In this document: positions 49,907-56,614 of the stretch, one piece after another
Layout: each line of letters opens with the position of its first letter
Numbering within the stretch: the first letter of the stretch is position 1
NCBI GenBank assembly: GCA_041904885.1
Contig: JAYRND010000065.1
Location: forward strand, 1 to 60,707
DNA: 60,707 nt
Direction: 5' to 3'
Source: Burkholderiales bacterium
Lineage (GTDB): Bacteria; Pseudomonadota; Gammaproteobacteria; Burkholderiales; SG8-39
Position numbers and translations under genes: made by a program
The notes under the pieces: generated by a model
The model's input: the letters and a program-made list of their open reading frames with translations, nothing else
Told to the model about the DNA's origin: nothing
Databases searched by the model: none

Positions 49907-51583
49907 TCAGGTCCCGAACCCGGGAATCTTCGACTCGTCCACTTCGTCGATCTGTTCCTTGTCGAGGAACAGCTCCGCATACCGGCGGTACACCTTCTTG
50001 CGCACGAACACGTCGAACAGGTCCGGATCGATGTGCCCGTTCTGCCTGAACTTGCCGAGGATCTCCAGCGACTCCGACAGCGTCTTGCCTTTCTTGTAGG
50101 GGCGATCCTTGGCCGTCAACGCCTCGAAGATATCGGCAATACCCATTACGCGCGCCTGAACCGACATCTGCCCGCGCGTCAGTCCCTTTGGATATCCCTT
50201 GCCGTCCATGCGCTCGTGGTGGCCGCCGGCGTACTCGGGTACGTTCTTCAAGTGGCGCGGCCACGGCAGGGCTTCCAGCATCTTGATGGTCGCCACGATG
50301 TGGTGGTTGATCACCTGCCGCTCTTCCGGTGTCAGGGTCCCTGCGCGAATGGTCAGGTTCTTCAGCTCGTCCTCGCTGAGGAAGCGCGCCTCGTGTCCCG
50401 AGATATCCGTCCAGGTGTAGCGCGCGATCGCGTTGACGCGCTCGATGTCCGCCTCCCGCATCGCCTCGCCGCCGATGTTGCAGGCGCGCAGGAACGCCCG
50501 GTCCTCGTCGAGCCTGCGGATGCGCTCGCGGTGCCTCGCGTCGGCGGCGTCCTGTTCGGATCGCTTCGCGCCGTGCGCGACCAGCAAAGCCTTCTCCTTC
50601 AGCAGGTCGATTTCTGCATCGCGCTTGAGCACCTCGAAACGCGTATCGACGAGGTGGATCCGGTCGAAGATGGACTCGAGCTTCGTCGCCTTGTCGACCA
50701 CGTGAACTGGAGTCGTGACCTTGCCGCAATCGTGAAGCAGGCCCGCGATCTTCAGCTCGTAGCGGTCCTTGTCGCTCATGGTGAACGCCGACAGGGGGCC
50801 CTCCTGGGTTTCGTTCACCGCCTCGGCTAGCATCATCGTGAGCTGTGGCACGCGCTGGCAATGCCCGCCCGTGTACGGGGATTTCTCGTCGATCGCCGTG
50901 TTCATCAGGTTGATGAACGACTCGAACAGCTCCTCCAGCTGGTTGATCAGCATCCGGTTGGTGAGCGCGATCGCCGCCTGCGACGCGAGGGACTCGGCGA
51001 GCCGCTGGTCCGAGGCCGAGAACGCCATGATCTCGCCGCCGGGCCCCTGCGCGTTGATGAGCTGCAGAACGCCGATGATCTCGTTCTCGTGGTTCTTCAT
51101 CGGAACCGTGAGAAACGACTTCGAGCGATAGCCCGTCTTCTTGTCAAAATTGCGCGTGCCGGAGAAATCGAAACCTTCGGCAACATAGGCATCGGGGATG
51201 TTGACCGTCTTGCCCGTCAGCGCCGCATAGGCGGCCACCATGTTGTGGTTAGGTTTGCCGTCCTTGCCTTCCAGATGGATTGGATAGAAAGGGACCGGGG
51301 TTCCGGTAGTGCCGCCGAGGTAGTAATGCAGCGAGGTCGTGCGCACGATCTCGAAGCGCAGCGTCCGGTCCTCGGCGATCCGGTAAAGCGTACCGCCGTC
51401 GGCGCGCGTGATCGTCTTGGCCGCGACGAGAATGCTCTCCAGGAGGCGATTGATGTCGCGCTCGGCAGACAGCGAGGCGCCAATCGCGTTCAGCTGCTCC
51501 AGCCGCTGGCCGAGATCCTCGCCCGCCTCCGCGGCGGCGAGCAGCCTCAGGCCCTGCGTGGATTCAGCGGACGAGCTGCTCAT
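49907..51583 (-). CDS. GAF-domain / HD-GYP-domain protein (putative cyclic-di-GMP phosphodiesterase)
   Basis: 558 aa with an N-terminal GAF-like region. Motifs are HDCGKVTTP ... LTPEERQVINHH ... GGHHERMDGKGYPKGL ... IADIFEALTAKDRPYK. Confidence 0.85.
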   Translation of the reverse strand: MSSSSAESTQGLRLLAAAEAGEDLGQRLEQLNAIGASLSAERDINRLLESILVAAKTITRADGGTLYRIAEDRTLRFEIVRTTSLHYYLGGTTGTPVPFYPIHLEGKDGKPNHNMVAAYAALTGKTVNIPDAYVAEGFDFSGTRNFDKKTGYRSKSFLTVPMKNHENEIIGVLQLINAQGPGGEIMAFSASDQRLAESLASQAAIALTNRMLINQLEELFESFINLMNTAIDEKSPYTGGHCQRVPQLTMMLAEAVNETQEGPLSAFTMSDKDRYELKIAGLLHDCGKVTTPVHVVDKATKLESIFDRIHLVDTRFEVLKRDAEIDLLKEKALLVAHGAKRSEQDAADARHRERIRRLDEDRAFLRACNIGGEAMREADIERVNAIARYTWTDISGHEARFLSEDELKNLTIRAGTLTPEERQVINHHIVATIKMLEALPWPRHLKNVPEYAGGHHERMDGKGYPKGLTRGQMSVQARVMGIADIFEALTAKDRPYKKGKTLSESLEILGKFRQNGHIDPDLFDVFVRKKVYRRYAELFLDKEQIDEVDESKIPGFGT

Positions 51584-51602
51584 GGGCGCCGCGGCCCCTC
51601 GG

Positions 51603-55774: not shown

Positions 55775-55789
55775 AGCTGACCCCTGCCC

Positions 55790-56614
55790 CTATTTTCGCC
55801 AACCGAAAAGTTTACCCATCACACCGCGCGGGGCGGGGTATTCCCGCAGGACGCGCACGAGTATAACCGATACGTTGTCCTTGCCCCCATTGTCATTGGC
55901 CATCTGCACCAGCTGCTGGGCAGCCAGCTTCAGGTTGCCCCCCAGCGCCTGCAGAGTCATCCCCATGTCCTCATCGTCCACCATGTCGCAAAGTCCATCG
56001 GAGCACAGCAAGTAGACGTCCCCTGGCTTGGTGGCGTACTCCTTCACCTCGGGCTCGACCGTAGGGTCGATCCCTAGCGCCTTGGTAACGAGGTTCTTGT
56101 GCTGGGCGTGCTTCGCCTGTTCCGCGGTGATGATGCCGCTGTCAATCTGCTCCTGCAGCAGGGAATGATCGCGCGTGACCTGCGAAAACTTGCCGTCGCG
56201 CAGCATGTACAGCCGCGAGTCGCCGAGGTGGCCCACGGTCATCTTGTTGTCGTAGAACAGGCACACCACCAGCGTAGTGCCCATGCCGGAGTACTGGGGC
56301 TGGCTCTGCGCGGCCTGGTAGATGGAGGTATTCGCCTTCAGCACCTGCTCGCGGATCATCTTGCCCGCCACCGGCGCCCTGGTTTCCTCGTCGATGTCGA
56401 ACGGCTGCACCTTGGCGAGCAGCTGCTGGATCTCCGTGGTGATCACCGTGGTCGCCATCCCGCTCGCGACTTCGCCTGCGTTGTAGCCGCCCATCCCATC
56501 GGCAAGCACCACCAGGCCGTTCGCGGGGTCCGATGCGATCGAGTCCTCGTTGTGCGAACGGACCATGCCCGGGTCGGTGCAGCTAGCGATTTCGAGAACC
56601 TGGCTGTAGTTCAT
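55790..56614 (-). CDS. PP2C-family Ser/Thr protein phosphatase (Stp1-like)
   Basis: 274 aa with PP2C metal-binding motifs: GMVRSHNEDS...LADGMGGYNAGEVAS...LLCSDGLCDMV...NGGKDNVSVILV. Confidence 0.9.
   Translation of the reverse strand: MNYSQVLEIASCTDPGMVRSHNEDSIASDPANGLVVLADGMGGYNAGEVASGMATTVITTEIQQLLAKVQPFDIDEETRAPVAGKMIREQVLKANTSIYQAAQSQPQYSGMGTTLVVCLFYDNKMTVGHLGDSRLYMLRDGKFSQVTRDHSLLQEQIDSGIITAEQAKHAQHKNLVTKALGIDPTVEPEVKEYATKPGDVYLLCSDGLCDMVDDEDMGMTLQALGGNLKLAAQQLVQMANDNGGKDNVSVILVRVLREYPAPRGVMGKLFGWRK

Follow-up and report, generated by a model that had tools for sequence, protein, structure and literature searches.

What does a motor ATPase of the type IV pilus kind do in the middle of a set of signalling genes, with none of the machine that it should drive encoded beside it? 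The question is raised by a block of five genes on the minus strand (positions 49907-56614) of contig JAYRND010000065.1, from the Burkholderiales bacterium assembly GCA_041904885.1. The whole stretch of DNA that was analysed, referred to as the window, is 60,707 nucleotides long, and the contig has a G+C content of 67%. The block encodes a PP2C-type phosphatase, an FHA protein, a class II-type cyclic-nucleotide phosphodiesterase, an ATPase of the PilB/GspE superfamily fused to an N-terminal GAF domain, and a GAF-HD-GYP protein. A first-pass annotation of the sequence had described the ATPase as an orphan without a kinase, a cyclase or a platform protein. This apparent orphan state is explained by comparison with related genomes, because the sensor genes of a larger cluster, conserved in Betaproteobacteria, have been lost from the locus or moved out of it in this lineage; the block is a reduced copy of that cluster. 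On balance, the genes are read as encoding a cyclic AMP (cAMP)-gated accessory pilus extension motor, modulated by FHA and phospho-threonine, together with a cAMP-gated cyclic di-GMP (c-di-GMP) phosphodiesterase.

The content of the window was established by Pfam scans of the large open reading frames (hits at E<=1e-5) and by NCBIfam with its equivalog cut-offs. Both recovered the five minus-strand genes with the domains first ascribed to them, at the following positions in amino acids (aa) and base pairs (bp):

56779-56808, minus strand: sigma70-like promoter match (consensus match only; TTGACG-18-AAAAAT with TG) within the 255 bp that precede the PP2C gene
55790-56614, minus strand: PP2C-type Ser/Thr phosphatase, 274 aa, the first gene of the block (Pfam PP2C_2/PP2C/SpoIIE)
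54923-55774, minus strand: FHA protein, 283 aa (Pfam FHA, E = 2.1e-21, residues 23-86)
54866-54922, minus strand: FHA-phosphodiesterase spacer, 57 bp, the site of a CHASE2-adenylate cyclase gene of about 2.2 kb in relatives (blastn against locus L001)
54098-54865, minus strand: class II-type 3',5'-cyclic-nucleotide phosphodiesterase of metallo-beta-lactamase (MBL) fold, 255 aa (Pfam Lactamase_B_2, PDEase_II)
53976-54097, minus strand: phosphodiesterase-ATPase spacer, 122 bp, the site of a gene for a cyclic nucleoside monophosphate (cNMP)-binding and rhodanese protein in many relatives (against locus L082)
51603-53975, minus strand: GAF-MshEN-like-PilB/GspE family ATPase, 790 aa (Pfam T2SSE, E = 2.1e-112, MshEN, GAF)
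49907-51583, minus strand: GAF-HD-GYP protein, 558 aa (Pfam GAF, HD, HD_5)

The intergenic gaps, in block order from PP2C, are 15, 57, 122 and 19 bp. Four sigma70-like sites were seen in the region against 2.2 expected, and a sigma70-like match, again a consensus match only, lies at 54052-54025 inside the phosphodiesterase-ATPase spacer. The PP2C protein is above the Stp1/IreP equivalog cut-off (NF033484; 251.8 against 230 bits). The three signalling currencies proposed for the block, phospho-threonine, cyclic mononucleotide and c-di-GMP, are all represented in it. No Rfam RNA, riboswitches included, was found in the window at gathering thresholds.

Relatives of the ATPase were sought in one genome per species, which yielded 596 stretches. 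The best 80 of the 596, each from another species-level genome, were compared with 10-kb flanks; window proteins were mapped onto these loci, all open reading frames were clustered, and the frequencies given here count only loci with enough flank. The ATPase is 66-89% identical in these 80 over essentially all 790 residues. Its carriers include Burkholderiales metagenome-assembled genomes (MAGs), Nitrosomonas, Gallionella, Sideroxydans, Sulfuritalea, Methyloversatilis, Propionivibrio, Noviherbaspirillum, Chitinimonas and others, and its near-identical relatives carry the labels of Burkholderiales or Betaproteobacteria MAGs. The usual gene order begins with a CHASE2-Ser/Thr kinase (about 850 aa), followed by PP2C, FHA, a CHASE2-class III cyclase (about 740 aa), the phosphodiesterase, in some loci the cNMP-binding and rhodanese protein (about 345 aa), the GAF-ATPase, the GAF-HD-GYP protein and pilA. 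By Pfam, the kinase of the relatives consists of CHASE2 and Pkinase, and the cyclase of CHASE2 and Guanylate_cyc. The phosphodiesterase gene is immediately 5' of the ATPase gene in 67 of 73 loci and the HD-GYP gene immediately 3' of it in 64 of 72. The cyclase gene separates the FHA gene from that of the phosphodiesterase in 48 of 65 loci, the kinase gene is immediately 5' of PP2C in 37 of 46, and the cNMP-binding/rhodanese gene is present in 32 of 73. PP2C and FHA genes are both found in most related loci. A chance adjacency of the five genes is ruled out, as the same gene order occurs in dozens of genomes.

Of all adjacencies in the cluster, that of the phosphodiesterase and ATPase genes is conserved best, and this pair forms the constant core of alternative layouts. 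In Nitrosomonas loci (L062, L066, L068, L073) the two genes follow one for a universal stress protein, and PP2C, FHA and cyclase genes are lacking. Loci of the Noviherbaspirillum type (L040, L045, L061) have the cyclase, HD-GYP and phosphodiesterase genes divergent from that of the ATPase. At L002 (5912-8881) the CHASE2-cyclase and the phosphodiesterase share a single open frame of 989 codons, which is either a real fusion or the result of a frameshift or assembly error at the C-terminal of the cyclase. The operon is thus conserved, and the first-pass annotation had allowed that it might be a known, characterised one; no description of the cluster or of a GAF-fused PilB was found in the searched literature, the coverage of which is thin for subscription journals. 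Genome papers on Ramlibacter, Dechloromonas and Gallionellaceae mention pil genes and do not mention the cluster.

The reduction is seen by comparison with three loci. The closest, L081 (GCA_020845995.1; ATPase 97% identical), shares with the window a colinear stretch of 10.85 kb (88% identity) that has the same junctions and the same five-gene block. At L082 (JGI 3300037422; ATPase 96%) the cNMP-binding/rhodanese gene lies exactly between the phosphodiesterase and ATPase genes and the cyclase is absent; positions 2894-3969 of that locus (cNMP_binding and Rhodanese) have no counterpart between 54095 and 54065 of the window. At L001 (ATPase 89%) the cyclase gene lies exactly between the FHA and phosphodiesterase genes; by blastn, positions 835-3106 have no counterpart between 54916 and 54866 of the window, and positions 870-3095 encode CHASE2 and Guanylate_cyc. 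Since these junctions match gene ends, whole genes are absent from the window at clean boundaries. An assembly artefact behind the missing cyclase is ruled out: the gaps match whole-gene boundaries, L081 has the same junctions and L082 is also without the cyclase. The window-type clade has oxalate-type genes at the kinase position of other lineages, and the minimal arrangement is also found in unrelated lineages (L069-L071).

In the window itself, Pfam scans of the large open reading frames detected no kinase, nucleotide cyclase, PilC, PilM-Q or secretin, and tblastn with the kinase, cyclase and cNMP-binding protein of the relatives gave nothing below E=0.3. The absence of these expected partners, as first noted, is therefore correct for the window; as a property of the system, the lack of a kinase and a cyclase is a reduction in this lineage, given their frequency in relatives. 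As the two sensor genes and the cNMP-binding gene are not in the cluster, its readers and erasers must here answer to cAMP and phospho-threonine from enzymes encoded elsewhere.

The ATPase has three recognisable parts:

53406-53888, minus strand: GAF domain
52962-53390, minus strand: MshEN-like domain
51606-52862, minus strand: ATPase core

The body of the protein had been called GspE/PilB-type. The superfamily (PF00437) holds, and within it the protein is nearer to PilB than to GspE, both in NCBIfam (TIGR02538, 483.4 bits, against TIGR02533, 446.4 bits) and among solved structures (371 against 322 bits). The best full-length match in the PDB is Myxococcus xanthus PilB (3JC8, E = 1.2e-109), which spans the MshEN-like, N2 and C-terminal domains; it is followed by Geobacter PilB, Thermus PilF and then GspE. 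No gsp genes were found in the window or in the related loci. The motor motifs of the window ATPase are intact, with GPTGSGKT as Walker A, EDPVE as the Asp box, DPDIIMVGEMRD as Walker B and TGHLVFATLHTN as the His box, and all four are present in 81/81 orthologues. A C-terminal tetra-cysteine Zn-binding motif is typical of PilB and GspE and is absent from PilT; here it reads CSCK...CDKC and is kept in 80/81 orthologues. About 29 extra residues lie between the Cys pairs of this region (residues ~660-705) compared with M. xanthus PilB, and a strongly acidic, variable linker (residues ~340-375) precedes the N2 domain. In the wider family, full-length GAF-fused relatives extend down to about 38% identity, Nitrospirota included.

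The MshEN-like domain (Pfam PF05157, E = 9.4e-8, residues 250-338) offers one place at which a nucleotide messenger might be read. The c-di-GMP-binding MshEN motif has been defined as a tandem 24-residue sequence, RLGxx(L/V/I)(L/V/I)xxG(L/V/I)(L/V/I)xxxxLxxxLxxQ, for which a relaxed form was also given (PMC5013675). By regular expression, neither the strict nor the relaxed form occurs in any of the 81 ATPase orthologues; at the two motif positions the window protein reads KYDYLIADAVLS... and AIDIEMVLVDEF... A reading of c-di-GMP through this domain is thus ruled out, and the path implied by the first-pass annotation, on which HD-GYP would act on the ATPase by way of c-di-GMP, lacks its receptor.

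The GAF domain of the ATPase offers another. Its nearest solved relatives are GAF domains with proven cNMP ligands: Anabaena CyaB2 (1YKD, E = 4.4e-26, 95 bits), PDE10A (1.9e-9) and PDE2A (3.8e-8), with PDE5/6 and PmGH also matched. Its NKFDE signature reads N-K-AGVP-F-GAL-A-E, with Ala in place of Asp.

The cyclase of the relatives points to which cNMP is made. At L001 its motifs are FADVRGFT, DKYIGD and YTVMGD, with Lys and Thr at the substrate-specifying positions. The same pair is found in Pseudomonas aeruginosa CyaB (3R5G; DKFVGD, YTIIG) and Spirulina CyaC (1WC0), whereas the guanylate cyclase Cya2 (2W01) has Glu and Gly (DEFMGD, YGVVG). Among the orthologues Lys is present in 45/46 and Thr in at least 30/46, so that the cyclase carries the specificity residues of a class III adenylate cyclase, and it has the metal-binding Asp residues as well.

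The phosphodiesterase, which starts at the ATG at 54865 and not at the TTG at 54898, carries the class II signature HxHLDH as HSHLDH on an MBL fold. It scores 50.5 bits against PDEase_II (PF02112; gathering threshold 23.7), with just positions 82-146 of the 340 of the model aligned. The best PDB match is the yeast class II enzyme PDE1 (4OJV), with which HSHLDH and FNWAIWPDFT align (FNxxIWPD in common). Both NCBIfam scores are under their cut-offs (cyclic nucleotide-degrading phosphodiesterase, 39 against 400 bits; RNase Z, 60 against 293 bits), and the assignment of a cyclic nucleotide as the probable substrate is therefore drawn from the motif and the genomic context.

The second GAF domain of the block is found in the HD-GYP protein:

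50957-51463, minus strand: GAF domain
49994-50911, minus strand: HD-GYP domain

The two GAF domains are paralogues, 25-30% identical. That of the HD-GYP protein matches PDE5 (4.4e-18), CyaB2 (1.1e-10) and also PmGH, and its NKFDE region reads N-A...F-SAS-D-Q. The catalytic residues of the HD...HHExxDGxGYP type are intact as LHDCGK and HHERMDGKGYP, and both motifs are present in 68 loci. The best solved match is PmGH (4MCW, E = 6.3e-32), with V-cGAP3 (5Z7C) also found. Between the HD and HHE...GYP halves lies an insertion of about 100 residues compared with PmGH (residues ~303-410), and an insertion at a similar place has been reported for REC-GAF-HD-GYP proteins (PMC12943098). The same GAF-HD-GYP architecture with these residues intact is shared by the PmGH family and by Tlr0485 of Thermosynechococcus, in which the binding of cAMP by the GAF domain can activate the hydrolysis of c-di-GMP (cited in 10.1101/2021.11.05.467447). 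The protein of the block differs from PmGH in the insertion and in a gene that adjoins those of the GAF-ATPase and a pilin; its predicted substrate is c-di-GMP or cyclic GMP-AMP (cGAMP).

The FHA protein is composed of two domains joined by a variable linker rich in Ala and Pro:

55490-55774, minus strand: canonical FHA domain
55433-55459, minus strand: linker motif DFEKTMVLR (Thr110), an invariant island in the hypervariable linker
54926-55189, minus strand: degenerate FHA-like C-terminal domain

The earlier description of the protein as dual-FHA is correct for the N-terminal domain. This domain (PF00498) has the G-R, S-x-x-H and N-G loops as IGRK, SGEH and STNGT, which are invariant in the orthologue alignment. 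The second copy does not fit the description: it has no SxxH loop, GK stands where GR would be, and its Pfam scores are sub-threshold (Yop-YscD_cpl, 0.0021; FHA, 0.096). It can be aligned to the N-terminal domain (hhalign, 89.3% probability, E=2.1e-6) and probably has an FHA-like fold without the residues that bind phospho-threonine. A profile search of the PDB with the C-terminal domain gave no FHA match and nothing meaningful, and the single-sequence AlphaFold model of the protein was too poor for use (mean predicted local distance difference test score, pLDDT, of 54.5). In the linker, the pattern [DE]F[ED][KR]T[MLVI] is found in 36/36 orthologues, with F107, T110, M111 and R114 invariant in the alignment. 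Thr110 of DFEKTMVLR is a candidate phospho-acceptor and, once phosphorylated, a candidate pT-x-x-L ligand of an FHA domain. The protein also matches OdhI in NCBIfam (1.2e-13), below the cut-off.

The connection to a pilus was first proposed from a pair of pilin genes in the window:

42754-42768, plus strand: sigma54-type -24/-12 element of pilA1, TGGCACGATCATTGC, the only exact consensus match in the window, about 60 bp upstream
42828-43271, plus strand: pilA1, type IVa prepilin, 147 aa (NCBIfam prepilin N-terminal domain)
43443-43457, plus strand: sigma54-type -24/-12 element of pilA2, TGGCATGATGATTGC, one mismatch
43534-43977, plus strand: pilA2, type IVa prepilin, 147 aa (NCBIfam prepilin N-terminal domain)

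The two genes are in tandem (121/147 residues identical), are convergent with the block and lie about 6 kb from the HD-GYP gene; no gene for a PilR/PilS-type activator was found in the window. The proposed link is upheld by the relatives. A prepilin gene is present 3' of the ATPase gene in 42/55 loci and never 5' of it, and in about 30 it follows directly after HD-GYP on the same strand. Its orientation is also convergent in L001 and is co-directional in L081 and most other loci. A regulated extension motor for these pilins, one of the two roles first suggested for the ATPase, is the best-supported reading.

Several observations count against it. The ATPase is under both equivalog cut-offs (675.65 bits for PilB, 630.25 for GspE), with an alignment that covers positions 5-562 of the 564 of the PilB model despite the low score. 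No source of cAMP or of phospho-threonine is visible in the window. The NKFDE-type pattern is matched by regular expression in 39/81 ATPase orthologues, the signature being kept only partly. The GAF domain of the HD-GYP protein scores best against the GAF of PDE5, which binds cyclic GMP (cGMP), and by homology the GAF domains may read either cAMP or cGMP. Distant GAF-fused relatives (about 45% identity, for example in Nitrospirota) are solitary, without pilin or signalling neighbours in the two neighbourhoods compared, and are annotated just as 'GspE/PulE family'. Within 10 kb of the ATPase gene, none of the 80 loci has PilC, PilD, PilM-Q, PilT, a secretin or a second PilB/GspE paralogue. A motor gene without an adjoining platform gene is in itself unremarkable, because in related Gallionellaceae isolates pilMNOPQ, the minor pilins, pilT/U and an MSH cluster are scattered round the chromosome (PMC3770913), and because one betaproteobacterium is on record as having three PilB paralogues beside a single machine (PMC3164672). 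The missing PilC and PilM-Q genes, which had been singled out as a gap in the window, are therefore ordinary.

Of the alternatives, the one that survives best concerns the ligand. The GAF domains may sense cGMP or a non-nucleotide ligand in place of cAMP, which would change the currency and not the architecture and is compatible with a regulated extension motor. Ligands of other kinds are bound by many GAF domains, only part of the NKFDE motif is kept, and the PDE5 match of the HD-GYP protein is to a cGMP-binding domain. The ligand of the related GAF of PmGH is unknown (10.1101/2021.11.05.467447). Set against this are the adenylate-specific Lys/Thr pair of the cluster's own cyclase, the far closer match of the ATPase GAF to cAMP-binding CyaB2 and to PDE10A than to other solved GAF domains, and the cNMP phosphodiesterase and cNMP-binding-domain protein encoded alongside. 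A ligand other than cAMP is thus considered unlikely.

A second alternative is that the ATPase drives another machine encoded elsewhere, such as a type II secretion-like system or another type IV filament, the adjacency of pilA being co-regulation or chance. The GspE scores lie only slightly under those of PilB, both equivalog cut-offs are missed, no platform gene is near in any locus, the distant relatives have no pilin neighbour, and in the related Gallionellaceae isolates several type IV filament systems are found, an MSH cluster among them (PMC3770913). This is quite unlikely in view of the position and strand of the downstream prepilin genes, the nature of the adjacent pilins, which are classical type IVa major pilins, and the identity of the best full-length solved match, M. 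xanthus PilB.

The ATPase could also have been turned over to signalling or regulation in the cytoplasm, without a filament partner, as a nucleotide-sensing hub that controls HD-GYP or gene expression; this is the other of the two roles first suggested for it. In favour of such a role, its gene is embedded among signalling genes, the MshEN-like domain has lost the c-di-GMP-binding residues, and no platform partner is encoded beside it in any genome examined, distant phyla included. It is an improbable role for a protein in which all motor motifs are kept in 80-81/81 orthologues. The ratio of non-synonymous to synonymous substitution rates (dN/dS) of the ATPase core, 0.02-0.03, is as expected of a working hexameric motor, although the motifs would be kept in a regulatory ATPase too. 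The conserved linkage to pilA has no role in this model.

Decay of the five genes as relics, following the loss of the sensors, is very improbable. Neither the window nor the 97%-identical L081 has the cyclase, kinase or cNMP-binding gene at this locus, but the five frames are intact, the catalytic motifs are complete and the minimal arrangement recurs in the unrelated L069-L071. Between the ATPase genes of these two sensor-less genomes, the dN/dS is 0.013 for the GAF domain, 0.091 for MshEN/N2 and 0.027 for the ATPase core (dS 0.36-0.51 overall, 0.36-0.49 for the GAF domain and the core). This purifying selection rules out decay of the block.

An anti-phage defence system of the Pycsar type, in which a cyclase and a phosphodiesterase go with a cNMP-binding effector, can hardly be credited and was ruled out, as the matches that recall it (PADLOC PycC models to the cyclase domain at 1.8e-26, effector models weakly to the cNMP-binding domain, and Pfam Anti-Pycsar_Apyc1 listed on the phosphodiesterase) are generic and at domain level, the five window proteins have no meaningful PADLOC match, neither a TIR nor a pore-forming effector is present (the cNMP-binding protein has a rhodanese domain), signals from outside the cell are suggested by the CHASE2 sensors, and the ATPase identity and stable synteny across betaproteobacterial families fit a vertically inherited, housekeeping-type system and not a mobile defence island.

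In its full form, the cAMP-gated motor system would begin with two membrane receptors that share the same kind of extracytoplasmic sensor, CHASE2, and feed two pathways. Through the first, the CHASE2-adenylate cyclase would make cAMP, which the class II-type phosphodiesterase would remove. Through the second, the Hanks-type Ser/Thr kinase would be opposed by PP2C and read by the FHA protein. The cAMP is predicted to be read by the two paralogous cNMP-type GAF domains. One would act on the PilB-like hexameric ATPase, which would power extension of a type IVa pilus from the adjacent sigma54-dependent PilA, working with a PilC/PilM-Q machine encoded elsewhere. The other would act on the HD-GYP enzyme to lower c-di-GMP, as in the cAMP-activated protein Tlr0485. 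The FHA protein is probably a phospho-switch or adaptor. Phosphorylated Thr110 would be bound by an FHA domain and would alter the engagement of the motor, or of the cyclase, either as an Fha1-like adaptor or as an intramolecular switch of the GarA/OdhI kind. In the lineage of the window, cAMP would be supplied by a cyclase encoded elsewhere. The ligand, the output, the phosphosite and the direction in which each step is regulated are all inferred from gene content and homology. The more specific proposal, that cAMP directly switches the extension motor via its cNMP-type GAF and that a CHASE2-kinase/PP2C/FHA checkpoint at DFEKT decides motor engagement, is a tentative one.

The proposed system shares parts with several known ones. 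The type VI secretion threonine-phosphorylation pathway of P. aeruginosa consists of the kinase PpkA, the PP2C phosphatase PppA and Fha1. As in that pathway, a nanomachine ATPase is encoded with, and presumably gated by, a PP2C, an FHA protein and a membrane Ser/Thr kinase whose sensor is extracytoplasmic; the likeness is an analogy only. Type VI genes are lacking here, the machine resembles PilB, sensing is by CHASE2 and the window is without the kinase. A further, degenerate FHA-like domain and the DFEKT motif set the FHA protein apart from Fha1. GarA and OdhI of Actinobacteria are FHA phospho-switches in which a phosphorylated Thr binds the FHA domain of the same protein. The FHA protein of the block is likewise small, with a conserved Thr in a flexible segment, but its motif is C-terminal and not N-terminal to the FHA domain, its partners are other ones and there is no evidence of metabolic targets.

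In P. aeruginosa, cAMP controls type IV pili through CyaB, CpdA, Vfr and Pil-Chp, acting on transcription by way of Vfr. There too the function of type IV pili is linked to an adenylate cyclase of class IIIb and to a phosphodiesterase for cAMP, and CyaB (3R5G) is matched by the cyclase of the relatives. The cluster differs in that its reader domains are fused to the motor and to HD-GYP, the phosphodiesterase is of class II type and not of CpdA type, and the cyclase sensor is CHASE2. The motor itself belongs to the same superfamily as Vibrio cholerae MshE and M. xanthus PilB (PMC5013675), with the same order of MshEN-type N1, N2 and C-terminal ATPase with Zn tetra-Cys, and with the same concept of a nucleotide messenger read by the N-terminal domain. 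It differs from these motors in the extra N-terminal cNMP-type GAF and the absence of the c-di-GMP motif (0/81), and from PilB also in its sub-cut-off score, in a gene that is not next to pilC/pilD and in the extra residues of the Zn-finger region.

Several neighbouring genes were also recorded:

56870-60707, minus strand: formyltransferase-like gene, family III CoA-transferase and thiamine pyrophosphate enzyme, directly upstream of PP2C
47832-49871, minus strand: TPR and GT41 (OGT-like) glycosyltransferase (Pfam Glyco_transf_41 and TPR), GTG start at 49871 (or 49877)
44118-47816, plus strand: 1232-aa membrane protein adjoining the pilin pair, with PAP2_3, an MFS-like region and a spermidine-synthase-like domain
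40382-42229 and 37453-40512, minus strand: two further TPR and GT41 genes
35945-37456, minus strand: gene recorded together with the three TPR and GT41 genes

The first set is of the oxalyl-CoA decarboxylase/formyl-CoA transferase type, and the same neighbours are found in L002, L004, L013, L018, L022 and L081. The 1232-aa protein, which may be a pilin- or envelope-modifying enzyme, has shorter relatives beside the cluster in L081 (12113-15052) and L082 (10271-13216), of 979 and 981 aa, in which a spermine-synthase domain is called. The three TPR-GT41 genes lie on both sides of the pilin genes, and one of the three is fused to GT4/GT1. They have a gene for an FkbM-type methyltransferase as neighbour, and TPR/GT41 genes recur near the cluster in relatives. 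Glycosylation of the pilin by these enzymes is a possibility. The TPR-GT41 gene nearest the block starts about 35 bp past the HD-GYP stop codon on the same strand and is possibly co-transcribed with the block; its L082 orthologue has 679 aa.

The rest of the window contains sulfur-oxidation genes, ChrB, MacAB-type transporter genes, a long glycan-biosynthesis region and the oxalate-type catabolic genes. Positions 1-4564 encode SoxY, a SoxA/TsdA-type cytochrome, a SoxB-like 5'-nucleotidase-domain protein and an edge-cut PUA-like domain gene, all unrelated to the block. Five large open reading frames of the glycan region have coding-type G+C at third codon positions and no Pfam match at E<=1e-5: 14966-17680, 20447-21472, 21940-23226 and 34371-36191 on the minus strand, and 29466-31217 on the plus strand.

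Post-translational control of pilus extension motors has so far been known mainly via c-di-GMP, through MshEN and FimX/PilZ, and the action of cAMP on pili has been transcriptional, through Vfr. If the proposed reading is true, a cNMP-GAF fused to the motor would add a direct route from cAMP to the motor, in a fusion kept at 66-89% identity in the 80 genomes compared, among them those of Nitrosomonas, which oxidises ammonia, and of the iron oxidisers Gallionella and Sideroxydans. The cluster would be to the pilus what the threonine-phosphorylation pathway is to type VI secretion, and in it one extracellular cue, sensed twice by CHASE2, would be coupled to pilus extension and to c-di-GMP removal without a transcription factor. 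CHASE2 is, to our knowledge, a sensor domain with largely unknown ligands. The cluster would supply a defined output for two CHASE2 receptors, and it offers distinct parts in the form of two GAF domains, one candidate phosphosite and one phosphodiesterase.

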